Assembly (NCBI GenBank): GCA_049510055.1
Contig: JBEKZI010000002.1
Location: forward strand, 17,132-81,131
From: Phycisphaerae bacterium
Lineage (GTDB): Bacteria > Planctomycetota > Phycisphaerae > SM23-33
Direction: 5' to 3'
Length of the DNA stretch: 64,000 nucleotides
The notes under the pieces are model-generated. The model was not told where the DNA came from, ran no database searches, and saw only the letters and a program-made list of their open reading frames with translations. Shown here one piece after another: positions 4,184-64,000 of the stretch (positions within the stretch are counted from its first letter, which is position 1; every line of letters starts with the position of its first letter). The position numbers and the translations under genes were made by a program.

Positions 4184-4645
4184 TTAGTCTCCCAGCCTCA
4201 GCATCATGGCCGTTTCGTCGCAGGCCTCGGCCTTGGGGCAGGAAATGCACTCCCGCCAGACCTTCTCGGGAAGGTCTTGGCGGTCGATGACCTCAAAGCC
4301 GTGGCGGGTGAAGAAGTCCTTTTCATACGTCAGCGCGAATAGCCGCTTGACGCCCAGTCGCCGGGCGTCGGCCAGGGCGGCTTGAATCAGCGCCGAACCG
4401 ACGCCTTTGCCCTGTTCCTGCGGGCGCACGGCCAGGGACTTCACCTCGGCCAGGTCCGCCCAGAACAGGCTGACGGCCACACATCCTAAAAATCGGCCTT
4501 CGGCGTCTCCAGCTACAAGAAAATCCCGCAAGGAATTATAGACGCTTTCGAGGCTTCGGTGCAGCATCTTGCCTCGTTCGGCGTAGTAGTTGATTACCTC
4601 GCAGAGGGCTTCGGCGTCGGCGACTGTGGCGGGTCGAATGGTCAT
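4184..4645 (-). CDS. GNAT family N-acetyltransferase
   Basis: Acetyl-CoA binding motif (QEQGKGVGSALI) in a roughly 150-aa protein. The ORF could extend to 4687, but the ATG at 4645 (MTIRPAT...) is preferred. Confidence 0.75.
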   Translation of the reverse strand: MTIRPATVADAEALCEVINYYAERGKMLHRSLESVYNSLRDFLVAGDAEGRFLGCVAVSLFWADLAEVKSLAVRPQEQGKGVGSALIQAALADARRLGVKRLFALTYEKDFFTRHGFEVIDRQDLPEKVWRECISCPKAEACDETAMMLRLGD

Positions 4646-12530: not shown

Positions 12531-12629
12531 GCGACTTTCCGTAGCCCTCCGTCCGTGCGGGGGCGGTTCGTTAATAGAAATGCCGTGCAACTTCGCGTCG
12601 AAACTCCGCGACAGGGGCCCGCCAAGCAG

Positions 12630-12745
12630 GCCAGCTCCAGCCAGGTTGCCCTCCGGCACACGCCGACGAATCGCTTATGGCTGCTTCCTTCCGGACCTGA
12701 CCAGGTTCACGCGTCAACGTTGCAGAGGACCCAGCCTTCAACGCT
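12630..12745 (-). ncRNA. ffs: signal recognition particle RNA (small 4.5S type)
   Basis: The minus strand reads ...GCAACGUUGACGCGUGAACCUGGUCAGGUCCGGAAGGAAGCAGCCAUAAGCGAUUCGUCGGCGUGUGCCGGAGGG... This contains the universally conserved domain IV (CCUGGUCAGGUCCGGAAGGAAGCAGCCA, GGAA tetraloop), identical to the E. coli 4.5S core. The gene lies immediately upstream of dnaX, as in many bacteria. The ends are approximate. Confidence 0.75.
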
Positions 12746-13010
12746 ACCTGAGCGACGGACTGGTCCCGCCACTGAGGCCCTCGGCGAAGCATTCGGTCCC
12801 GCACAAGCGGATTTCGGGTCATCCCGATTGCTCGGGAATCAGGGCACCGCTAGCGCCCCACCTAGCACGGCGAGGCCATCATATCCAGGCCGGGACGGGG
12901 GAGCAAGACACGCGGGGGAAAAGATATCCGCAGAATGTCGCTATTACGGCAGCAGCGGTACCACACGTGATCAGAATGGCCTGATTTTATCCGCTGCTTT
13001 GGGGCACTGG

Positions 13011-33584: not shown

Positions 33585-33657
33585 GGGCAGGTAGCTCAGC
33601 CGGTAGAGCACATGACTGAAAATCATGGTGTCGGCGGTTCAATTCCGCCCCTGCCCA
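33585..33657 (+). tRNA. tRNA-Phe (anticodon GAA)
   Basis: 73-nt cloverleaf. Acceptor stem GGGCAGG/CCTGCCC, D-arm GCTC-AGCCGGTA-GAGC, anticodon stem-loop CATGA-CTGAAAA-TCATG, and T-arm GGCGG-TTCAATT-CCGCC. CCA is not encoded. Confidence 0.95.
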
Positions 33658-43618: not shown

Positions 43619-44218
43619 AAAATTTCTTGACAGGGAGTGATGCACGCCGCTAAAGTTCTTTTCGTTGCAGGTGCCCGCAAGGGCCAACAGGGAAGGCCGT
43701 GAAAGTCGGCCGCGGACGCGCCGCTGTAACCGGCGACGACCGCCGCACGTAAGGCCACTGTCTCGACGCGTGGTCGGGATGGGAAGGCGCGGCGGAAGGA
43801 CGACCCGGGAGCCAGAAGACCTGCCTGCAACCAACCTGGTTGAGCCTCCGCGAGTCATCGGCTGACCGGATCGTGTTTTCTGACGCACGATGCCCCGGGG
43901 CCGCGGCGGACGCGAGGTTCCGGGGTTTTTCATGTGCGGCATGGCCGAGACGCGAACCGCTGGCCCGCCCAACGCGGCATTCGCCCGCCCGGCCTTCGCC
44001 TCCAATCCCCGACAGGTTGCCGATGGACCGGCCTTGCGCCCGGGCTCGCCCATCAGCCGCCATCCGGTGCGATAAGGGAAGGATCGAAAGGAACTCCAGG
44101 AACTTTAAAGAGTCGACACTGTGGTTTTGGTATGCACGCACGTCCCCCTGGCCTCTGGTCAGGGGGCAAGGAAGGCGGCGGCCGATGGGCCGCCCGAGAA
44201 GCTCGAAAGGATTGCATC

Positions 44219-51909: not shown

Positions 51910-53471
<1,562 letters not shown>

Positions 53472-54265: not shown

Positions 54266-55114
54266 TTACGTTCCGCTTTTTCCCTTGGAGCCTTTTTTCT
54301 TCGGCAGTCCCTCGATGATCAGCCGCAGGATGGCGTTGGCGGCGCCGTCGGCGTCGTGGTGGGCGGTCACGTAGTCCGCCACGGCCAGGACGCCGGGCGT
54401 GGCGTTGCCCATCGCGACGGCGATGCCCGCCCACTGGAGCATGTCCACGTCGTTGTCGTTGTCGCCGATGGCCATCACTTCGTGGCTGGCCACGCCCAGT
54501 TCCCCGGCCACGGCACGCAGGGCTTTGGCCTTGGAGACCGTCGCGTGGCAGATCTGGAGCAGGTGGTCCTCGGTCATCATCACGTTGACCTGCTGGGGAT
54601 GCGCCTGGACGATCGCGCGGCCCACCTTCAGCAGCGGTTCCGGCTGGCCCAGCAGCAGCAGCTTGGTCACCGGCACGGTCAGCCAATCGTCCACCGGAGC
54701 GATGACGTCGGGGTTAAACACCTTGCCCGTCTCGGTCAGAAAGGCCGGGTCCAGGCGGTCGGTGCACCAGCGGTCGAGGATCTCCGCCGAGACGAGCACC
54801 TGCGGATATTCTTTCCGCGCCAAGGTCACGATGTCGCGGGCGATGTCGATGGCGATGGGGAGGTGCAGGATCACGGTGCCGGAGGGCGGGTCCAGCACCA
54901 AGGCCCCGTTGTAGCAGATCATGGGCGTGTCCAGGTCCAGCAGATTGTAGAAGGGCATCACGCTCCGCGGCGGTCTGGCCGAGGCCAGCACGACGTGCAC
55001 GCCGGCCTCCTGCCGCGCTCGCCTCAGGATGGCCGCGGTGGTCACGGTCACCTGCTTGGCGGAGTTCAGCAGCGTGCCGTCCAGGTCTATGGCGACCATG
55101 TGGATCTTGCTCAT
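54266..55114 (-). CDS. Cof-type HAD-IIB family hydrolase
   Basis: HAD motifs (DLDGTLL; GDNDNDVDML) with a Cof-like cap. Length is 282 aa. Confidence 0.9.
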   Translation of the reverse strand: MSKIHMVAIDLDGTLLNSAKQVTVTTAAILRRARQEAGVHVVLASARPPRSVMPFYNLLDLDTPMICYNGALVLDPPSGTVILHLPIAIDIARDIVTLARKEYPQVLVSAEILDRWCTDRLDPAFLTETGKVFNPDVIAPVDDWLTVPVTKLLLLGQPEPLLKVGRAIVQAHPQQVNVMMTEDHLLQICHATVSKAKALRAVAGELGVASHEVMAIGDNDNDVDMLQWAGIAVAMGNATPGVLAVADYVTAHHDADGAANAILRLIIEGLPKKKGSKGKSGT

Positions 55115-55352
55115 GGGGCGTTCCTCGGCCAGACCATCATAATCGCGGGGGACCCGATAGTGAACCTCCCTGCCGGCGCCTGCTTGCCGATAGGCCGCAG
55201 GGGCTTGTCGCGGCCGTAGTTACGGCCTGCGCGGAGGAGAGAATTTTCCGCACATGCATCTCTAACCTTCATAGTGGGTTATAACGGCAAATTTCAGCCG
55301 CTTCTTTTGGTCGAAAAAATGCAATTTTTGCGGGATTCGTCTGTTTTTATCC

Positions 55353-55382
55353 TTGACGTTTTGGGGCCTTGGAGGTTAGAAT
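55353..55382 (+). promoter_or_regulatory. sigma70-like promoter (TTGACG-N18-TAGAAT) for PEP-CTERM paralog 1, giving a leader of about 260 nt
   Basis: Hexamers read directly from the sequence. The leader contains the hairpin GTCTC-TTAGGAG-GAGAC, with GGA in its loop. Confidence 0.45.
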
Positions 55383-55644
55383 GCAAATCATGTAGCGTAC
55401 CAGTGTTTGAGGAGACGCGGTACGCAAGCCAACAAGTCTCTTAGGAGGAGACTAAACGGCACCCGGATCGGTGATGATTTTGGGTTGGCCGCATCGGCAC
55501 ATAACGCTCAAGACAAGCGAGTGCCGCCGCTGATGAGAATCTACACGAAAAACAAGCATGAGTGTGCTTTGCGTGTAGTCACTCCGCAAAACGTAAGGTA
55601 GGGATCAACCCCCCCTAAAGCGAGAGAAGAAGGAGAGAGGCATT

Positions 55645-56391
55645 ATGAAGAAGTTAGTGGTAGCGAGTTTGGTTCTTGGATTATGTGTGGTGGCCGCGCA
55701 GGCCGGTCCGATTACGAGGACCATCAGCTACGTCGGCACCTATACGGTCACAGGCGACACCGGCACTGCCAACGTCAGCGTGTATAACATCACGGAGTAT
55801 AGCACCGCTCCCAACACGACGTTCCAGACTGTCGTGGACATGACGTTTGGAACGGCTGCGGGCCAGGGCGGTCAAAACCCGTTCCAGGCTGCCTATACCA
55901 CCAAGACAAAGGTGGGCGGCGTCTGGACGTATCCGGTGAACTTGACCCCCACGGAAGACTCTGACTCGTACTGGGATCCGAACGACGGGAGCCACATCTA
56001 CCAGTCCGATTCCCGGTTTATGCCCTCCAGTGCCAATCCCAGCGACCCGTGCGGCGGCATCGAGAACTGGCTGGCCATCCAAGCCCCGACCGAGACGAAC
56101 GATCGGTCTATCGATCCGAACAACGCCGTGTCCGATGACATTGTTCTGGGCAAGGGCGGCCTGAGCACGATCTCCGCGATTCCGGTGCCGATGCAGAGCG
56201 GCTCTTTGCAACTGCTCGTTGCCAGGATCGGCGTCGTGGCGGGAGACACGGTGTGGGGCCTGGACCAGTCGGCGTACTATGACGGCATCGCCGACAGGTC
56301 GCTCAATGAAACGTTTATAGTCCCTGAACCGGCGACGCTGGCATTGCTGGGACTGGGCGCTGTGGCCCTGATTCGTCGTCGCAGAGGCTAG
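55645..56391 (+). CDS. PEP-CTERM sorting-domain protein, paralog family A (copy 1)
   Basis: Signal peptide MKKLVVASLVLGLCVVAAQA. Conserved core includes DPCGGIENWLAIQAPTETND. C-terminus is VPEPATLALLGLGAVALIRRRRG. Confidence 0.85.
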   Translation: MKKLVVASLVLGLCVVAAQAGPITRTISYVGTYTVTGDTGTANVSVYNITEYSTAPNTTFQTVVDMTFGTAAGQGGQNPFQAAYTTKTKVGGVWTYPVNLTPTEDSDSYWDPNDGSHIYQSDSRFMPSSANPSDPCGGIENWLAIQAPTETNDRSIDPNNAVSDDIVLGKGGLSTISAIPVPMQSGSLQLLVARIGVVAGDTVWGLDQSAYYDGIADRSLNETFIVPEPATLALLGLGAVALIRRRRG

Positions 56392-56447
56392 CCGCAAGCC
56401 GCCAATAGATTCAAGAACCTGACTCTAGCAGCAGTGGGGTTGACCCC

Positions 56448-56483
56448 CTAAGGGCCTCGGTTATGCCGAGGCCCTTAGCTTTT
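56448..56483 (+). terminator. rho-independent terminator
   Basis: TAAGGGCCTCGG-ttatg-CCGAGGCCCTTA followed by GCTTTT. Confidence 0.6.
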
Positions 56484-56638
56484 CCAGGTGTTTATTCTCA
56501 AGACATTTCTATCCGCAACACTAGCTTTGAAAAGCAGTTGCGCTTGCATGGCTTGATGATCCGAAGTCGGGCCTGTGCCTCCAGTTTTGCAAGGCGGTGA
56601 CATTCCTGTGAAATTGAGGGGGGATGTCCGTTTTGTTC

Positions 56639-56667
56639 TTGACAACCCGGCCGTTTGCCTATAGTAT
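56639..56667 (+). promoter_or_regulatory. sigma70-like promoter (TTGACA-N17-TAGTAT) for paralog 2, giving a leader of about 190 nt rich in GGAGC motifs
   Basis: Near-consensus hexamers. The leader contains at least 7 GGA motifs (CGGAGCAGGAGCCGACGGAGCAC, UUGGAGCG, AUGGAGCC, AAGGAGCG, AGGGAGCA, plus the SD GAAGGAGAUA). Confidence 0.5.
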
Positions 56668-56859
56668 CCCTAATGTAGTGTCCGAACGGAGCAGGAGCCG
56701 ACGGAGCACCTCTCCTGAGCTTAAGTTGGAGCGTTTTCCCTAACTGTTGCATGGAGCCGTTGTTAAGCCTAAGGAGCGCCCCTTTAACAATGAAGGCAAG
56801 GACTATTTTTCCCTCGTAAGGCAGGGAGCAACCCCCCTAATGTGATGAAGGAGATAGGT

Positions 56860-57600
56860 ATGAAAAGGATGCTAGTAGCGAGTTTGGTTCTTGGACTATG
56901 TGCCGTGGTGGCACACGCTGGCCTTGTTATAACGGTTACCAAGGTCGGCAGCGCACTGACGGTCCAGGGTGATCAAGGCTCTGCCGTCGTTGATGTGTAT
57001 GACATCACGATATCGAGCCCCAATGCCAATACGTTCGAGACCACCGTGGACATGACGATCGGAGCAGCCACGGGCAAGGGTAGCGATCCGTTCCAGGCTG
57101 CCTATACCACCAAGACGAAGGTGGGCGGCAAGTGGACGTATCCGATTAACCTGACCCCGTCGGAAGACTCTGATTCGTACTGGGATCCGTGCGATGGCAG
57201 CAACATCTACCAGGCCGATTCTCGGTTCCTTCCCTCCGCCGCGGATGCCAATGATCCGTGCGGCGGCATCGAGAACTGGCTGGCCATCCAAGCCCCGACT
57301 GAGACGAACGATAAGTCTATCGATCCCAATCGGGCCATTGCCGATGACATTGTTCTAGGCAAGGGCGGTCTGAGCACGATCTCCGCGATTCCGGTGCCGA
57401 TGCAGAGTCCTTCTCTGCAACTGGCGGCTGTCCGGGTCGGCGTTGTTCAAGGCACGCAGGTTTGGTGCCTGGACCAGTGCGCGTGGTATGACGGCGTGGC
57501 AGACCAGAGCGACAACGTTACCTTTATGATTCCCGAGCCGGCAACGCTGTCTATGCTGTGCCTGGGCGCTTTGGCCCTGATTCGTCGTCGTAGGAGCTAG
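56860..57600 (+). CDS. PEP-CTERM sorting-domain protein, paralog family A (copy 2)
   Basis: MKRMLVASLVLGLCAVVAHA...IPEPATLSMLCLGALALIRRRRS. It is about 75-85% identical to copy 1 over the core. Confidence 0.85.
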   Translation: MKRMLVASLVLGLCAVVAHAGLVITVTKVGSALTVQGDQGSAVVDVYDITISSPNANTFETTVDMTIGAATGKGSDPFQAAYTTKTKVGGKWTYPINLTPSEDSDSYWDPCDGSNIYQADSRFLPSAADANDPCGGIENWLAIQAPTETNDKSIDPNRAIADDIVLGKGGLSTISAIPVPMQSPSLQLAAVRVGVVQGTQVWCLDQCAWYDGVADQSDNVTFMIPEPATLSMLCLGALALIRRRRS

Positions 57601-57668
57601 CCACAAGGCTATAGATTCGAGAGCCTACTCACAGAATGCATCTACATGATCGTGGGGTTGTACCCTTT

Positions 57669-57702
57669 AGGGCCTCGGCAAAACCGAGGCCCTTGTTTTT
57701 TT
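57669..57702 (+). terminator. rho-independent terminator
   Basis: AGGGCCTCGGC-aaaa-CCGAGGCCCT followed by TGTTTTTTT. The stem sequence is shared with the terminator at 56448. Confidence 0.65.
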
Positions 57703-57748
57703 GCGAGGGGCGTGGCCGGGAGACGGTGCCATCGCAGCAGGGGGGAAA

Positions 57749-58069
57749 TTAGAAGTGCAGGGCCAGAGGTTGGGTGAACTGCACGGCCAGGCCCACGGTC
57801 GCCCCGTCCAGCTCCTCCATGCGGGTGATGCATCCGCTGCCGCGCACGGCCCCATCGCGGCTGGAGTGCCCTCCTCCGGCTGGGACGGCCAGGATGAAGT
57901 CCAGCGGGCTGCCCGCGGGGGGCGCCTCGGCGGCCGGAATGCGAAGGTACATGCCTCCCGAGGAGACGTTGCCCGTGACCCAGGGGCCTGAGGAGGGAAG
58001 CCGGCCGGCGCCCGAAACGGACCAGTGCAGGGGCAACCGCCGATGTTGGCGGCGTTCGGTGTTTGCCAT
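57749..58069 (-). CDS. PilZ domain protein (putative c-di-GMP receptor)
   Basis: 106 aa. The ATG at 58069 is preceded by a GGAGAG SD. PilZ signature motifs RRQHRR (RxxxR) and NVSSGG (D/NxSxGG) are present. Confidence 0.6.
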   Translation of the reverse strand: MANTERRQHRRLPLHWSVSGAGRLPSSGPWVTGNVSSGGMYLRIPAAEAPPAGSPLDFILAVPAGGGHSSRDGAVRGSGCITRMEELDGATVGLAVQFTQPLALHF

Positions 58070-58288
58070 GGCGATCTCTCCTTGGGACGAGCAGCCTCGG
58101 CCACAGTCAGCCGATAGGAAGGATAGCACCCTACCCCTGCCGGAGGCAAGGGCCTCCTATAAGCAAGGCATTCCGGAGAAAGTGGGGGAGTTTTCCTGAA
58201 TTTCTTCCCAGTTCCCTCAGGCGTGCTTGGCGAAACGGCTGTTTTGGGGTATACTGTAACCCCAAGGCGTAAGGAGGATGGGCCGGAG

Positions 58289-59185
58289 GTGGACGGCGTG
58301 CGGAGGTGGACGCAAATAGTTTGTCTTGTCGTTTTGACGGCGTCCCCGGCGTGGGCGGCGACGCTGACGTTGACGTTGGCTCAGCCGACGCTCGGGCAAT
58401 GGGAGGTCTTCGGCCAGCTCAGCAACAATACCGACAACGACGGCCTGTCCAGCCTCATCATCAATGTCCAGGCTGTCGGCGGTGACGTGGGCGTCAGCTC
58501 CTCCCTGAACGATTTGCCCCACGGCACGCACTACTATTTGCTGGACGGCAATGTGCAGTCGCAGCTCGTCGGCTTTACCGAGTTCCGCAGCGACGGCAAC
58601 AGCGGCATCGGCATCTGCGCCGGCCAAAAGACGACCTCTCTGGGACAGGTGGTGCTGACGGACGTGGGCTACTCCGCCGGCAGCACGCCCGGCGACCAAA
58701 CCGGCCTGGGGCTGGGACCGACGCAGATCTCCTGGTCCGCCCCCCTCCTGATCGCCAGCGGCTCCTACAGCGGGACGTATGGCACGTTGTCGGTGGCGGT
58801 GGGGGCGGGGCAGGTCAACGTGCTGAACGAAGGCCGCAACCCCGCTCAGACCGGCGGCGTGCACAAGATCGAGAGCGTCGTGAGCGGCTCACTTCGAATT
58901 TACCACGTCGGCGACGCCACGGGCGATGACAAGGTCGACAGCAACGACTTTGGCGCGCTAGCCAGAAACTGGCTGCAAAGCGGCAAGACCTGGGCCGACG
59001 GCGACTTCAACGGCGATGGCGTCGTGGACGGCACGGACTTCGGCGCGTTGGCCCGCAACTGGGGCTGGTCGGCGTCGGCCTCCATGTCCAGCGCGACGGC
59101 GGCTACGCTCCCCGAACCGGCCACGCTGGCCTTCCTGGGCCTGGGCGCCATGACGCTGCTCGTCCGCGGCCGGCGCAGCCGCTGA
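58289..59185 (+). CDS. PEP-CTERM protein with dockerin-like repeats (paralog of 44219..44920)
   Basis: A GTG start at 58289 lies 12 nt after an AAGGAGG SD. Signal peptide is VRRWTQIVCLVVLTASPAWA. Repeats are DSNDFGALARNWLQSGKTWADGDFNGDGVVDGTDFGALARNW. C-terminus is LPEPATLAFLGLGAMTLLVRGRRSR. Confidence 0.75.
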   Translation: MDGVRRWTQIVCLVVLTASPAWAATLTLTLAQPTLGQWEVFGQLSNNTDNDGLSSLIINVQAVGGDVGVSSSLNDLPHGTHYYLLDGNVQSQLVGFTEFRSDGNSGIGICAGQKTTSLGQVVLTDVGYSAGSTPGDQTGLGLGPTQISWSAPLLIASGSYSGTYGTLSVAVGAGQVNVLNEGRNPAQTGGVHKIESVVSGSLRIYHVGDATGDDKVDSNDFGALARNWLQSGKTWADGDFNGDGVVDGTDFGALARNWGWSASASMSSATAATLPEPATLAFLGLGAMTLLVRGRRSR

Positions 59186-59338
59186 AAATCAGCCCACCCG
59201 CTTATCCTCCTCCCCCCAAAAATACATCACACGCAAGTGCTTTTGAGCTTGATTTTTAGGTGCTTTAGTGATATAGCATCCTTCATCTAAGGGCGTGGAG
59301 CGCACACCTGAACGCCAAAGGAAGGAAGGGGTTGTCTC

Positions 59339-60088
59339 ATGAAAAGAATCCTTATTATCAGTTTAGTTCTTGGGTTATGCGATGCGGCGTCGCAGGCCGG
59401 TCTGGTTATAACGGTCGATAAGGTCGGCACCTATACGGTTACGGGCGATACCGGCTCGGCCCTCGTGGATGTGTATGACATAATCATGTCGAGCCCCAAT
59501 GCCAACACGTTCCAGACGACCGTGGACATAACGTTTGGGACGGCTGCGGGGTATGGCGGTCAAAACCCGTTCCAGGCTGCCTATACCACTAAGACGAAGG
59601 TGGGCGGCAAGTGGACGTATCCGGTGAACCTGACCCCCTCGGAAGATGCCGACGGGTATTGGGATCCGTGTGACGGCAGCAACATCTACCAGGCCGATTC
59701 TCGGTTCCTGCCCTCCAGCGCCGACGCCAACGATCCCTGCGGCGGCATCGAGAACTGGCTGGCCATCCAAGCCCCGACCGAGACAAACGATGGGTCCATC
59801 GATCCGAACAACGCCGTGGCCGATGACATTGTCCTTGGCAGGGGCAGCCTGAGCACGATCTCCGCGATTCCGGTGAAAATGCAGAGTCCCAATCTTGTGC
59901 TGCCAGTTGCCAGGATCGGTATCGTGCGGGGAGACGTGGTCTATGTCAAAGACGAATGTGCTTACTATGACGGCATCGCAGACCGGTCCGATATTCCGGG
60001 GTTTGTCTATGCTCCTGAACCGGCCACGCTGACCTTCCTGGGCCTGGGCGCCGTGACGCTGCTGGCCCGCCGCCGGCACGGCCGCTGA
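59339..60088 (+). CDS. PEP-CTERM sorting-domain protein, paralog family A (copy 3)
   Basis: MKRILIISLVLGLCDAASQA...APEPATLTFLGLGAVTLLARRRHGR. Confidence 0.85.
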   Translation: MKRILIISLVLGLCDAASQAGLVITVDKVGTYTVTGDTGSALVDVYDIIMSSPNANTFQTTVDITFGTAAGYGGQNPFQAAYTTKTKVGGKWTYPVNLTPSEDADGYWDPCDGSNIYQADSRFLPSSADANDPCGGIENWLAIQAPTETNDGSIDPNNAVADDIVLGRGSLSTISAIPVKMQSPNLVLPVARIGIVRGDVVYVKDECAYYDGIADRSDIPGFVYAPEPATLTFLGLGAVTLLARRRHGR

Positions 60089-60223
60089 AAATCCGCCGGC
60101 CGCCGGCAATACGTTGACATACATGAAAGCACCTGGAAGCATAACTTTCAGGTGAGGTAGCTTTCCAACCATCAAGGCGTGTGGAGCACACACCTAAAGC
60201 GCAGGAAAGGAAGGGGTTTGGCC

Positions 60224-60997
60224 ATGAAACGAATCCTTATTATCAATTTGGTTCTTGGGTTATGCGCTGCGGCGGCGCAGGCCGGGATCATGTGGCCGGT
60301 CTTGACCGGACCGATTACTATCACGATGGAAAAAGTCGGCACCTATACGGTTACAGGTGACACCGGTTCCGTCATTGTCAATGTGTATGACATGACGATG
60401 TCGTGCCGTAATCCCAACACGTTCCAGACCGTCGTGGACTTGACGATTGGGTCAGCTTGCGGCCGCGGTGATGACCCATTCCAGGTAGGCTTGGTGAACA
60501 AGACGAAGGTCGCCGGCAAGTGGGCGTATCCGGTTGCCCTGACCCCCACCGAAGACGACGATGCCACCTTCTTTGACCCCAATGACGGGACCAACCAGTA
60601 CCAAGCCGACTCGCGGTTCATGCCCTCCAGCGCCGATGCCAACGATCCGTGTGACGGCATCGAGAACTGGCTGGCCATCCAACGGCCGACCGAGACGAAC
60701 GATGGGTCTATCGAGCCGAACACCGCTGTCCCGTATGCCTCCGTCCTGGGCAAGGGCAGCATGGAGGTGATCGCCGCGATTCCGGTGGTGATGCAGAGCC
60801 CTAATCTAAAGCTGAAGGTCGCCCGGATTGGTATCGTGCAGGGAGACATGGTCTATTTCGAAGACCAGTCTGCTTACTATGACGGCATCGCAGACCGGTC
60901 CGATATTCCGGTGTTTCTCTGTGCTCCTGAACCGGCCACGCTGGCCTTCCTGGGCCTGGGCGCCGTGACATTGCTTCGTCGCCGCCGCGGCCGCTGA
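60224..60997 (+). CDS. PEP-CTERM sorting-domain protein, paralog family A (copy 4)
   Basis: The ATG at 60224 (MKRILIINLVLGLCAAAAQA) lies within the ORF 60179..60997. C-terminus is APEPATLAFLGLGAVTLLRRRRGR. Confidence 0.85.
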   Translation: MKRILIINLVLGLCAAAAQAGIMWPVLTGPITITMEKVGTYTVTGDTGSVIVNVYDMTMSCRNPNTFQTVVDLTIGSACGRGDDPFQVGLVNKTKVAGKWAYPVALTPTEDDDATFFDPNDGTNQYQADSRFMPSSADANDPCDGIENWLAIQRPTETNDGSIEPNTAVPYASVLGKGSMEVIAAIPVVMQSPNLKLKVARIGIVQGDMVYFEDQSAYYDGIADRSDIPVFLCAPEPATLAFLGLGAVTLLRRRRGR

Positions 60998-61132
60998 GAA
61001 TCCGCCGGCCGCCGGCAATACGTTGACATGCGCGAAAACACCTGAAAGCGTAACTTTCAGGTGAGGTAGCTTTCCAACCATCAAGGGGTGTGGAGCACAC
61101 ACCTAAACCCCACCAGAGGAAGGAGTTGTATC

Positions 61133-61900
61133 ATGAAACGAATCCTTATTATCAATTTGGTTCTTGGGTTATGCGCCGTGGCGGCACAAGCCGGGATCAC
61201 GTGGAATGTCTTGACCGGGCCGATTAATATCACGATGGAAAAAGTCGGCACCTATACGGTCACGGGGGACAGCGGTTCCGCCATTGTCAATGTGTACGAC
61301 ATGACGATGTGGTGCCGTGATCCCAACACGGTCGAGACGGTCGTGGCCTTAACGATTGGGTCGGCCACGGGCGCGGGTAGTGATCCGTTCCAGGCTGCCT
61401 CGGTGTACAAAGCAGGTAGCAAGTATCATATCGGGTTAACTCCCGTGGAAAGTGCTGACGAGACATTTTTGGATCCGTGCGACGGGAGCAATGCCTACCA
61501 GGCCGATTCCCGCTTCATGCCCTCCGGTGAGTATACCGATCCCAACGATCCGTGTGACGGCATCGAGAACTGGATGAACCTTCGAGTGCCGACCGAGACG
61601 AACGATGGGTCTATCGACCCCAACCAGAATGTGGACGGTGACATGATGCTGGGTAAGGGCGGTATGGAGGTGCTCGTCGCGATTCCGCTGGCAATGCAGA
61701 GCCCTAATCTAAAGCTAAAGATCGCCCGGATTGGTATCGTGCAGGGAGACATGGTCTATTTCCAAGACCAGTCTGCTTACTATGACGGCATACGTGACTT
61801 GAGCGAGTACACAGCGCCGATTCTTGTTCCCGAACCGGCGACGCTGGCCTTCCTAAGCCTGGGCGCCGTGACATTGCTTCGTCGCCGCCGCGGCCGCTGA
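61133..61900 (+). CDS. PEP-CTERM sorting-domain protein, paralog family A (copy 5, most diverged)
   Basis: ATG at 61133 (MKRILIINLVLGLCAVAAQA). The central region is diverged (AASVYKAGSKYHIGLTPVESADETF). C-terminus is VPEPATLAFLSLGAVTLLRRRRGR. Confidence 0.85.
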   Translation: MKRILIINLVLGLCAVAAQAGITWNVLTGPINITMEKVGTYTVTGDSGSAIVNVYDMTMWCRDPNTVETVVALTIGSATGAGSDPFQAASVYKAGSKYHIGLTPVESADETFLDPCDGSNAYQADSRFMPSGEYTDPNDPCDGIENWMNLRVPTETNDGSIDPNQNVDGDMMLGKGGMEVLVAIPLAMQSPNLKLKIARIGIVQGDMVYFQDQSAYYDGIRDLSEYTAPILVPEPATLAFLSLGAVTLLRRRRGR

Positions 61901-61940
61901 AAATCCGCCGGCCGCCGGCAGCAAGTTAACGCACACAAAG

Positions 61941-61981
61941 GCACCTGGAAGCTTGACTTTCAGGTGCCTTTGATGTAATAT
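61941..61981 (+). promoter_or_regulatory. intergenic module: palindrome GCACCTGGAAG-CTTGAC-TTTCAGGTGC overlapping a near-consensus promoter (TTGACT-N17-TAATAT)
   Basis: A 9-10 bp inverted repeat (GCACCTGAA / TTCAGGTGC) brackets the -35 hexamer. The same module, with variations, recurs upstream of copies 4, 5, 6 and 7. Confidence 0.55.
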
Positions 61982-62037
61982 CCCTGCATATCAGGAGGGG
62001 GTGCTCCCCCCTAAAAAGAGAGGAAAGGGGTCGTGTC

Positions 62038-62793
62038 ATGAAAAGAATCCTTATTATGAGTTTGGTTCTTGTGTTATGCGCCGCGGCCGCGCAGGCTGGT
62101 TTGGTTTATACGGTTAATTATATCGGTGCCTATACGGTTACGGGTGATACCGGCTCGGCCCTCGTCGATGTATGGGACATCTATTCGTCGAGCCCTAATT
62201 CAAACACGTTCCAGACCACCGTGGACTGGACGTTTGGGACGGCCATAGGCGCCGGCGGCAATGACCCGTTCCAGGCTGCCTATACCACCAAGACGAAGGT
62301 CGGAGGCAAGTGGACGTATCCAGTGAACCTGACCCCCACGGAAGACTCTGACTCGTACTGGGATCCGTGCGATGGTAGCCACATCTATCAGACCGATTCC
62401 CGGTTTATGCCCTCCAGTTCCAATCCCAGCGACCCGTGCGGCGGCATCGAGAACTGGCTGGCCATCCAAGCCCCGACCGAGACGAACGATCGGTCTATTG
62501 ATTCCAATGAAGCCGTTGCCGATGACATTGTCCTGGGCAAGGGCGGCCTGAGCACGATCTCCGCGATTCCTGTGCCGATGCAGAGTCCTTCTCTGTACTT
62601 GCTCGTTGCCCGGATCGGCGTCGTGCGAGGAGACATGGTCGGGTGCTTGGACCTGAGCGCGTGGTATGACGGCATTGCCGACCGGTCGGATGATAACTTC
62701 TTTTGGTTATCTTATCCTGGACCTGAACCGACGACGCTGACCTTCCTGGGTCTGGGCGCCATAACATTGCTTCGCCGCCGGCGCGGCCGCTGA
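62038..62793 (+). CDS. PEP-CTERM sorting-domain protein, paralog family A (copy 6)
   Basis: MKRILIMSLVLVLCAAAAQA...GPEPTTLTFLGLGAITLLRRRRGR. Confidence 0.85.
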   Translation: MKRILIMSLVLVLCAAAAQAGLVYTVNYIGAYTVTGDTGSALVDVWDIYSSSPNSNTFQTTVDWTFGTAIGAGGNDPFQAAYTTKTKVGGKWTYPVNLTPTEDSDSYWDPCDGSHIYQTDSRFMPSSSNPSDPCGGIENWLAIQAPTETNDRSIDSNEAVADDIVLGKGGLSTISAIPVPMQSPSLYLLVARIGVVRGDMVGCLDLSAWYDGIADRSDDNFFWLSYPGPEPTTLTFLGLGAITLLRRRRGR

Positions 62794-62935
62794 AAATCAG
62801 TCGGCCGCCGGCAATACGTTGACATGCACGAAAGCACCTGAAAGCTTGACCTTCAGGTGCTTTCGTGATATAGCGCCCTTCATCTAAAGGCGCGGAGCAC
62901 ACATCTAAAAGCGCCAGGAAGGGAAGGGTTGGACC

Positions 62936-63703
62936 ATGAAACAAATCCTTATTATCAATTTGGTTCTTGGGTTATGCGCCGTGACAGCACAGGCCGCGCC
63001 CAGGCCGATCATGCCCGGACCGCTGAATATCTCGTTGGAAAAAGTCGGTACGTACACGGTGACGGGTGATACCGGCACGGCCAATGTGGATGTGTACGAT
63101 ATCATCATGTCGAGCCCCAATTTCAACACGTTCCAGACGACCGTAGACCTGACGATTGGAGCAGCCACGGGCCAGGGCTCCGACCCGTTCCAGGCTGCCT
63201 ATACCACCAAGACGAAGTACGGTGGCAAGTGGACGTATCCGGTTAACCTGACCCCCACGGAAGACGACGACGGGTATTGGGATCCGAACGATGGCAGCAA
63301 CATCTACCAGGCCGATTCTCGGTTCCTGCCCTCCAACGCGGATGCCAACGATCCATGCGGCGGCATCGAGAACTGGCTGGCCATCCAAACGCCGACCGAG
63401 ACGAACGATGGGTCCATCGAGCCGAACACCGCTGTCTCATATGCCTCCGTCCTGGGCAAGGGCAGCATGGAGGTGATCGCCGTGATTCCGGCACCGATGC
63501 GGAGCCCCTCTTTGCAGCTGCTCGTTGCCAGGATCGGCGTCGTGGCGGGAGACACGGTTTGGGGCCTGGACCAGTCGGCGTGGTATGACGGCGTGGCAGA
63601 CCAGAGCGATAGGGAGCTGTTTCTGATTCCCGAACCGGCGACGCTGGCCTTCCTGGGCCCGGGCGCCGTGACGCTGCTTACCCGCCGCCGGCACGGCCGC
63701 TGA
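62936..63703 (+). CDS. PEP-CTERM sorting-domain protein, paralog family A (copy 7)
   Basis: MKQILIINLVLGLCAVTAQA...IPEPATLAFLGPGAVTLLTRRRHGR. Confidence 0.85.
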   Translation: MKQILIINLVLGLCAVTAQAAPRPIMPGPLNISLEKVGTYTVTGDTGTANVDVYDIIMSSPNFNTFQTTVDLTIGAATGQGSDPFQAAYTTKTKYGGKWTYPVNLTPTEDDDGYWDPNDGSNIYQADSRFLPSNADANDPCGGIENWLAIQTPTETNDGSIEPNTAVSYASVLGKGSMEVIAVIPAPMRSPSLQLLVARIGVVAGDTVWGLDQSAWYDGVADQSDRELFLIPEPATLAFLGPGAVTLLTRRRHGR

Positions 63704-63770
63704 AAATCAGTCGGGGGCGAAGGGGGAATGCTCTACCTGGGGTCCGCCCTTGCGCACCGCCGGTGGCGGT

Positions 63771-64000
63771 CTAGGCCTGGGCGTATTTCTCCGGTGGGGC
63801 GAACAGGAACATTGCGACCATCAGCGCCCCGACCGCCAGCAACAGCAGGCCGCGGCGCGTCGAAAGGCGCTGAATCTTGGCGGCGGCGATGATTTCCCAG
63901 CCGGCGGGGGGCTCGGGGCGCGGATAGCGGACGGGAATCACCACGTCGGGCGGCGGCCGGGTGGCCCCGGCCGGCGGGACGATCACCTCGTTGTCGGGCA
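63771..64000 (-). CDS. hypothetical membrane-anchored protein (5' end probably beyond window)
   Basis: The reading frame stays open to the window edge. The C-terminal part has a TM helix (LLLLAVGALMVAMFLFA) and a Pro-rich region. Support is weak. Confidence 0.25.
   Translation of the reverse strand, partial: PDNEVIVPPAGATRPPPDVVIPVRYPRPEPPAGWEIIAAAKIQRLSTRRGLLLLAVGALMVAMFLFAPPEKYAQA

Follow-up and report, generated by a model that had tools for sequence, protein, structure and literature searches.

The closest described counterparts of the leaders reported here are the 5' UTRs regulated by CsrA or RsmA, such as those of pgaABCD and glgC in E. coli and of psl in P. aeruginosa. The classical CsrA/Rsm consensus consists of GGA followed by U/Y and then by G. 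Another relevant system is the STAB-SD of Bacillus thuringiensis cry3A, and S-layer genes are likewise known to have long, structured 5' UTRs. To our knowledge, RNA-level regulation is almost entirely unexplored in Planctomycetota, and the same applies to the control of PEP-CTERM/exosortase cargo genes beyond the proteobacterial sigma-54 systems.

In a 64-kb stretch of Phycisphaerae DNA (hereafter the window), two regions very probably constitute the unusually long 5' leaders of a pair of PEP-CTERM genes, p1 and p2, which encode surface proteins and would each be transcribed from a promoter of their own. By comparing these leaders with the systems above, both likenesses and differences may be recognized. 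As far as the available descriptions of CsrA/RsmA-regulated leaders extend, the two sets share a long 5' UTR ahead of biofilm or surface-matrix genes, several GGA sites, one of them on the SD and a second within or beside a small hairpin 25-30 nt further upstream, and rapid evolution of the sequence outside the motifs. On the other hand, according to the same descriptions, the known sites follow (A/C)A(N)GGA(U/Y)G, whereas the motif here is GGAGC or GGAGGAGA and the sites are not preferentially located in predicted loops. Similarly to STAB-SD and S-layer leaders, the present ones carry, far ahead of the start codon, an SD-like sequence that no start follows; they also have a stable hairpin at the 5' side and a product that is a very abundant secreted surface protein. 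They differ in having several motifs instead of one, in that many of these motifs are GGAGC, a poorer match to the anti-SD than GGAGG, and in that the AGGAGG of one hairpin (H2, below) is predicted to be paired. The second leader, with its repeated-GGA array amid fast-drifting sequence, recalls the CsrB/RsmZ sponge RNAs. However, neither leader is free-standing and neither displays its motifs in a series of hairpin loops. A role as a sponge is unlikely, since each RNA is the 5' UTR of a translated gene and runs into the coding sequence with no intervening terminator. Finally, like the c-di-GMP-I (GEMM) and c-di-GMP-II riboswitches, the leaders stand by a c-di-GMP-related gene (PilZ) and ahead of surface/biofilm genes, but they have no junction architecture and no expression platform, and they match neither model. 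In general, they look like uncharacterised post-transcriptional control regions that correspond to no known riboswitch.

Organization of the locus and promoters

The genes, promoters and leaders of the locus are as follows (window coordinates).

51913-53470, reverse strand: 16S rRNA gene, found by an Rfam search of the window
54266-55114, reverse strand: Cof-type HAD hydrolase
55353-55382, forward strand: promoter 1, TTGACG-18-TAGAAT, 10/12 match to a sigma-70-like consensus
about 55389-55644, forward strand: leader 1, of p1, from the putative TSS
55645-56391, forward strand: p1, PEP-CTERM paralog
56450-56476, forward strand: terminator-like hairpin of p1, with the mini-hairpin GGGGUUGACCCC ahead of it (from 56436); kept in 10 genes
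56639-56667, forward strand: promoter 2, TTGACA-17-TAGTAT, 10/12 match to a sigma-70-like consensus
about 56674-56859, forward strand: leader 2, of p2, from the putative TSS
56860-57600, forward strand: p2, PEP-CTERM paralog
57749-58069, reverse strand: PilZ gene

Beyond the PilZ gene lie a dockerin/PEP-CTERM gene and five further paralogs (p3-p7), and the position of PilZ next to PEP-CTERM genes is syntenically conserved. The terminator-like hairpin of p1 gave a weak BjrC68-like match in a cmscan against Rfam. The names carried by identical proteins assign the window to a Phycisphaerae MAG.

An earlier note on this DNA had pointed out promoter-like hexamers at 55353 and 56639, far upstream of the start codons. 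Both are indeed present, and they are the two top-scoring sites of a promoter scan over 9 kb (55000-64000). Between each of them and its AUG, scanning revealed no other consensus promoter and no intrinsic terminator. Given these promoter positions, and with the TSS taken to lie about 7 nt past the -10 element (+/- 3 nt for leader 1), the leaders are ~256 nt and ~186 nt long. They resemble each other only in the -35 region and in the final ~50 nt.

Comparison with a sister genome

A 301-kb JGI contig of a sister genome (L002) carries the syntenic locus, with HAD, three PEP-CTERM genes, PilZ and dockerin. Its 16S rRNA is 99.5% identical to that of the window, while the PEP-CTERM proteins are only ~33% identical. 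Leader 1 is 87.8% identical to L002 3582-3831 and leader 2 is 87.7% identical to L002 4834-5018; the DNA directly upstream of the -35 element reaches 55% at promoter 1 and 48.5% at promoter 2. L002 has the same hexamers at both promoters, and every mismatch within the promoters (6 in promoter 1 and 4 in promoter 2) falls in the spacer between them (joint P ~0.003).

The identity of the leaders, 88% compared to 50-58% in the flanking spacers, was not retained as proof of strong constraint. The 4-fold degenerate sites are themselves 86% (HAD) and 79% (PilZ) identical, against 88-90% for the leaders, so that it is the flanking spacers that are hyper-diverged and the leader that is not unusually conserved. 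With substitutions at 9.7% of leader positions vs 15.9% of 4-fold sites (P = 0.026), the leaders appear modestly more conserved than this neutral proxy. The closeness of these identities favours an explanation in which the distal promoters are real and the leaders are largely non-functional transcribed spacer. The distal sequence would then be debris of promoter turnover and decayed RBS modules, the likeness to L002 would reflect a short divergence time, and only the 50 nt next to the SD would matter. In view of the substitution patterns and motif counts described below, we consider this quite unlikely.

Because each leader is represented by only two distinct sequences, covariation is minimal (leader 1 shows 2 double changes, leader 2 a single one). 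A protein scan of genome contigs yielded no further relatives for covariation, and a metagenome scan yielded only a contig of the same population; L033-L035 have identical leaders. The contigs originate from peatland samples of JGI, such as 3300018024 and 3300018004.

Outside the leaders, the spacers at 55115-55352, 56486-56638 and 58130-58289 are only 48-55% identical to L002, far below the 4-fold sites, and have therefore been replaced or turned over unusually fast. The mature PEP-CTERM domains are also diverged (~33%; window 55700-56300 and 56920-57520 vs L002 3890-4460 and 5080-5650), whereas identity stays at ~75-90% from the promoter through the leader and signal peptide, and again over the PEP-CTERM tail and the adjoining 3' UTR. 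This pattern looks like cassette-like replacement or diversifying selection of the surface protein between conserved flanks.

Leader 1 is predicted to form five hairpins

Leader 1 is predicted to be strongly folded, with an MFE of -89.1 kcal/mol (z = -4.06 vs shuffles), and it is much more folded than shuffles in both the window and L002. The predicted fold is a chain of five independent hairpins.

55395-55425, forward strand: H1, 5'-proximal hairpin, GCGUACC.GUGUUU-GAGG-AGACGC.GGUACGC, holding the first GAGGAGAC copy
55435-55453, forward strand: H2, 8-bp stem in the MFE fold, AGUCUCUU-AGG-AGGAGACU, then UAAAC
55457-55491, forward strand: H3, imperfect hairpin; in L002 one pair is changed on both sides and one on one side, and both pairs are kept
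55495-55526, forward strand: H4, CGGCAC..CGCU-loop-AGCG.GUGCCG in the alignment fold; L002 changes in loop and bulge only
55541-55578, forward strand: H5, inverted repeat CUACACG...CGUGUAG; outer stem invariant in L002, interior variable

H1 begins ~7 nt from the putative 5' end and differs from L002 by a sole C>U change that retains a G-U pair, and H2 is invariant. H2 corresponds to the hairpin GUCUC-UUAGGAG-GAGAC that had been reported before; that hairpin is real and lies at 55436-55452, within the 8-bp stem and one base away from the reported position. The direct repeat reported for this leader was found as well, in the form of two GAGGAGAC copies (55409-55416 and 55445-55452). Relative to the fold of the window sequence, the L002 substitutions break 5 MFE pairs of leader 1 compared to 9.9 expected (P = 0.0098). 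In the MFE fold, H1 and H2 present GG in the loop. GGA as such is not in excess in leader 1 relative to shuffles (GGA 6 vs 5.2 expected; GGAG 4 vs 1.8, P = 0.08); consequently, the description of both regions as long GGA-rich leaders holds for the length of both and for the GGA content of leader 2, but not for the GGA content of leader 1.

H2 also contains a perfect SD-like AGGAGG (55443-55448), and no AUG, GUG or UUG occurs within 12 nt downstream of it. This element introduces the main rival to a regulator-based mechanism. In this rival, start-less SD-like sequences (GGAG or AGGAGG) would pair with the 16S 3' end as 30S standby or STAB-SD-like sites and, together with H1, would shield the mRNA from 5'-end-dependent decay and raise the level of abundant surface proteins, with no dedicated regulator involved. 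The 16S 3' end is canonical (...CACCUCCUUUCU) and complementary to the AGGAGG of H2, and the position of H1 close to the 5' end is in keeping with a shielding role. However, the AGGAGG is largely sequestered in the predicted fold, with P(unpaired) of 0.62 and 0.01 at its two GGAG positions. Considering also the points from leader 2 and from the wider family given below, we regard ribosome binding and stabilisation as a rather unlikely explanation of the leaders as a whole.

Known RNA classes and small open reading frames

A second-messenger riboswitch had been proposed for the leaders in view of the neighbouring PilZ gene. A cmscan of 55100-57000 against all 4227 families of Rfam 15, c-di-GMP-I (RF01051) and c-di-GMP-II (RF01786) included, gave no match in either leader at E <= 10 except for one chance match (CRISPR-DR57, 17 bits, 55580-55609). 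Similarly, the search of the whole window at the Rfam gathering threshold returned nothing in the leader region, and no Rfam family was detected at E <= 1 in the leaders of 8 related loci. No known class of second-messenger riboswitch was thus matched, and the PilZ neighbour, although conserved in synteny, provides no RNA-level link. The part of the riboregulatory proposal that stands is compatibility with a CsrA target, given the strand-specific GGAG(C) motifs described below.

Leader 1 might instead hold a ligand-sensing riboswitch of a new type, or another structured sensor, that responds to c-di-GMP or some other signal and is possibly linked to PilZ. This would agree with the strong folding of this leader, with the tolerance of the fold to the L002 substitutions and with the syntenic conservation of PilZ. 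On the other hand, besides matching no Rfam model, the fold is a chain of independent hairpins and not a multi-helix junction with conserved unpaired cores, it has no terminator and no clear SD-sequestering alternative, and the sequence of leader 1 is not conserved past one sister genome. A pairing of CACUCC with the SD is seen in the window but is absent from L002, and a switch via the GAGGAGAC repeat was rejected because the alternative pairing is 13.7 kcal/mol less stable. A sensor of this kind is very improbable.

The reading frame at 55407-55601, previously judged to be non-coding, has a TTG start and no SD, and in L002 it shows a frameshift close to its end along with codon changes that are nonsynonymous in 10 cases and synonymous in 5, in agreement with that judgement. 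A leader peptide at 55474 was also rejected, as this 19-codon AUG ORF meets a stop after 4 codons in L002, and the leader 2 AUG at 56789, considered as a uORF, is lost in L002.

The GGAGC array of leader 2

Leader 2 contains 7 GGAGC in addition to the GGAG of the SD, which confirms an earlier count of seven or more GGAGC/GGAG motifs, and 0 GCTCC. The expected number of GGAGC is 0.44, none of 5000 dinucleotide shuffles reached 7, and the count is the unique maximum among the 186-nt stretches of the window. Six of the motifs are distal.

56688-56707, forward strand: three GGAGC forming a 5' cluster (at 56688, 56694 and 56703)
56728-56777, forward strand: three further GGAGC (at 56728, 56753 and 56773), kept in L002 while the flanks change

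The seventh, at 56825, lies inside the SD-proximal module (module 2, below), so that leader 2 has 6 extra sites in ~125 nt. All seven are retained in L002 while their flanks mutate; among the 20 changes in this leader (17 substitutions and 3 deleted positions), 0 fall in any GGAG (P = 0.02). In addition, an A at -2 (the ANGGA form) precedes 6 of the 8 GGAG sites, counting the 7 GGAGC and the SD (P = 0.004, post hoc), and this A before GGA is missing in the other leaders of the family. As for structure, leader 2 has an MFE of -47.4 and is not more folded than shuffles (z = +1.48), its predicted fold contains no 5' hairpin, and the L002 changes break 8 of its pairs compared to 7.9 expected, which lends no support to a structure. 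The GGAG motifs have a mean predicted unpaired probability close to the average of the leader and not above it.

These features bear on the ribosome-binding explanation introduced above, against which stand the missing 5' hairpin and the strict GGAGC at 7/7 sites, the latter indicating recognition beyond 4-nt pairing. They also raise the question of DNA-level operators, in which case the GGAGC repeats would bind a transcription factor downstream of the promoter as a roadblock or an activator. The exactness and repetition of the motif and its conservation in L002 would suit operators. However, the strand bias is strict, both here and across the family (below), no palindrome or dyad is present, the spacings of 6, 9, 25, 25, 20 and 52 nt are off the helical repeat, and GGAGC is also found in the hairpin loops of the short p3, p4, p5 and p7 UTRs. 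Operators are therefore very unlikely.

The SD-proximal module and the wider family

Both leaders end in a related module that includes the SD.

55591-55637, forward strand: SD-proximal module 1, CGUAAGGUAGGGAUCAACCCCCCCUAAAGCGAGAGAAGAAGGAGAG; SD AAGGAG at 55630-55635; AUG at 55645
56814-56856, forward strand: SD-proximal module 2, CGUAAGGCAGGGAGCAACCCCCCUAAUGUGAUGAAGGAGAU; SD AAGGAG at 56848-56853; AUG at 56860

This ~50-nt module is composed of UAAGG, a short G/C hairpin with GGA on the loop side, an A-rich stretch and a strong purine SD. It is conserved family-wide as UAAGGYAGGGANNAACCCCCC...GAGAAGGAGA, with the A-rich stretch followed by GCGAGAAGGAGA, and 55591-55644 is 98% identical to L002 (ungapped aligned columns). 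The GGA of the module lies 25-30 nt upstream of the SD GGA; in p1, these two sites are at 55601-55604 and 55632-55634 and are accompanied by the H1 and H2 motifs. Thus, p1 and p2 each possess at least two GGA sites with one overlapping the SD, the arrangement by which CsrA/Rsm targets are recognized. No covariation was observed in the module, as its 12 class-A copies have in common only an invariant 3-bp GGG/CCC stem; the variants at p3-p7 have another stem, GUGUG/CACAC, in the same position. The view that leader 2 consists of tandem decayed module copies proved marginal, with one segment scoring 23 vs 17 +/- 3 (P = 0.053), and leader 1 gave no signal of decayed copies.

By using the HAD protein as a syntenic anchor together with one DNA-pattern scan, related loci were collected from at least 8 further genomes (L004, L022, L025, L039, L041, L043, L044, L045 and L046/L003). 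In at least 9 genomes, TTGAC[GA]-16/18-TAnnnT is always located 190-312 nt upstream of the AUG of the PEP-CTERM genes in first and second position, and the leader length falls in this range in 13/13 cases. This supports the long leaders as a conserved trait of this PEP-CTERM gene family. In an all-against-all BLAST of the leaders, only the SD-proximal module is shared with more distant genomes, and the distal leaders are unalignable once 16S identity is 96.8%. The comparison with homologous leaders, which had been put forward as a check on the riboregulatory proposal, therefore gave a divided outcome, in that the architecture and the ~50-nt module are conserved but the distal sequence does not align beyond L002.

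Although the distal sequences cannot be aligned, their motif content recurs. In 13 distal leaders (2306 nt, SD module removed), GGAG occurs 37 times and CTCC 4 times (16 and 1.7 per kb), compared to 14 and 12 times, that is, at the genome background, in control spacers just upstream of the promoters (2794 nt); the difference in strand bias is significant (Fisher P = 0.001; 0.004 without the window). The L046 distal leader opens with GGAGC-ggua-GGAGC-agu-GGAGG and resembles the 5' cluster of leader 2. The base 3' of distal GGAG is C in 13 cases, A in 7, G in 5 and U in 4, and the GGAGGAGA-type motifs in the first-gene leaders of other genomes are the same as the real SDs of the family. Strong folding is not general, since z < -2 was obtained only in the leader-1 type and in L041_g1, the others ranging from -1.4 to +2.1. 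In five loci, a further promoter-like site immediately precedes the module, at about -52 to -60, and a short form of the leader may therefore suffice in these genomes.

For the pairing of start-less motifs with the 16S 3' end, the identity of the GGAGGAGA-type motifs with real SDs is a supporting point, as is the depletion of the anti-SD-like CTCC in leaders (4 in 2.3 kb vs 12 in 2.8 kb of control). However, a G after distal GGAG would extend the anti-SD pairing, and it is not preferred. The explanation by transcribed spacer, in turn, gains from the loss of alignment in distal leaders, from the promoter-like sites next to the module and from the one leader 2 segment that is like a decayed module copy. 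It is opposed by the GGAG enrichment and CTCC depletion that recur in independent lineages and are absent from adjacent spacers, by substitutions that avoid GGAG (P = 0.02) and the leader-1 stems (P = 0.01), by the folding of leader 1 far beyond shuffles in both genomes, and by the leader length, which is kept in all 13 cases.

Proposed mechanism

Judging from these comparisons, the GGAG motifs are probably functional at the RNA level. A cis-acting RNA is indicated because the motifs are strand-specific, conserved and reiterated, with one copy in the module and one in the SD. It is a reasonable possibility, still short of probable, that the leaders act in cis and offer their GGA(G/C) sites for recognition by an RNA-binding factor, of which a CsrA-like one is the likeliest; the narrower proposal that a CsrA-type factor acts on them is put forward more tentatively. 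In the proposed mechanism, each leader would combine the family-wide ~50-nt SD-proximal module with a lineage-specific distal domain that contributes extra sense-strand GGAG, placed within the five-hairpin stack in leader 1 and in the six-GGAGC array of poorly structured RNA in leader 2. The distal sites, the module and the SD would be bound by a protein specific for GGA in RNA, with a CsrA-family dimer as the likeliest candidate, and this binding would set ribosome access and mRNA lifetime. Finally, the output of the abundant and variable surface proteins would track the global state of the cell (biofilm or floc vs free-living).

In carrying GGAGC and in being predicted to be of no more than average accessibility, the sites depart from classical CsrA sites. 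A tblastn search with the E. coli and B. subtilis CsrA queries, covering the 64-kb window and 85 kb of related loci, detected no csrA; CsrA has been reported as widely found in Planctomycetota (PMC13443453). The accessible portions of the literature contain no described CsrA targets in Planctomycetota or in the PEP-CTERM family. The leaders are best filed as a further example of motif-array 5' leaders, a placement that draws on comparative statistics from few genomes. A more distant alternative, which we consider doubtful, would be a Phycisphaerae-specific system in which a non-CsrA factor reads GGAGC/GGAGGAGA arrays and leader 1 represents a new structured RNA domain, so as to coordinate which of the hypervariable, recombining PEP-CTERM members are expressed. 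If true, this would amount to antigenic-variation-like expression control in free-living peat bacteria.

Irrespective of the factor, the leaders of this syntenically conserved locus supply cis elements that can be tested (promoter, GGAG(C) array and SD-proximal module) and a defined motif, GGAG(C), for genome-wide searches. They may also connect a global RNA-binding regulator with surface or floc proteins. For now, their practical use is modest: long 5' UTRs can be annotated better in Phycisphaerae MAGs, and a seed is provided for an RNA family that may be built when further genomes become available.

Other features of the locus

Another observation concerns the 3' ends of the genes. A 3' UTR of ~80 nt is kept in 10 genes from at least 7 genomes (window 56392-56485 and 57601-57705; L002, L004, L022, L025, L039 and L041), and it persists even in genomes whose distal 5' leaders do not align. 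Its elements follow the order GAACCU..., a GCAUC/GAUGC hairpin, the GGGGUUnnnCCC mini-hairpin and a AAGGGCCUCGG/CCGAGGCCCUU terminator. This conserved 3' UTR may act as a stability element or be the source of an sRNA.

The intergenic regions of p3-p7, which are short (60089-60223, 60998-61132, 61901-62037 and 62794-62935), have several features in common. The stop codon is followed by the palindrome GCCGGCCGCCGGC; a hairpin formed by CACCUGGAAGC...CUUUCAGGUG has a -35-like TTGAC in its loop; and a UTR hairpin whose loop contains GGAGC is followed by CUAAA and then the SD. Among p3-p7, p6 alone passed the promoter consensus scan.

The 16S rRNA gene adjoins the HAD / PEP-CTERM locus in the window, L002 and L039. 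The 64-kb window contains this 16S gene and no 23S rRNA gene anywhere, and the rRNA genes are therefore unlinked. The Rfam search of the window at the gathering threshold also located a cobalamin riboswitch (43652-43842, forward strand, 110 bits), a large bacterial SRP RNA (12583-12870, reverse strand, 141.7 bits) and a tRNA (33585-33657, forward strand).

Variation within the population was also noted. Contig L001 (1-1130) carries a hybrid gene with the 5' part of p1 and the 3' part of p2 behind leader 1, with leader 2 deleted, and paralog p5, found in both the window and L033, is apparently missing from L034. In L022, another Phycisphaerae MAG, two Acido-Lenti-1 RNA motifs occur in opposite orientation directly downstream of the PEP-CTERM homologue (4229-4275, reverse strand, and 4378-4424, forward strand), with scores of 43.2 and 38.5 bits vs a gathering score of 37.
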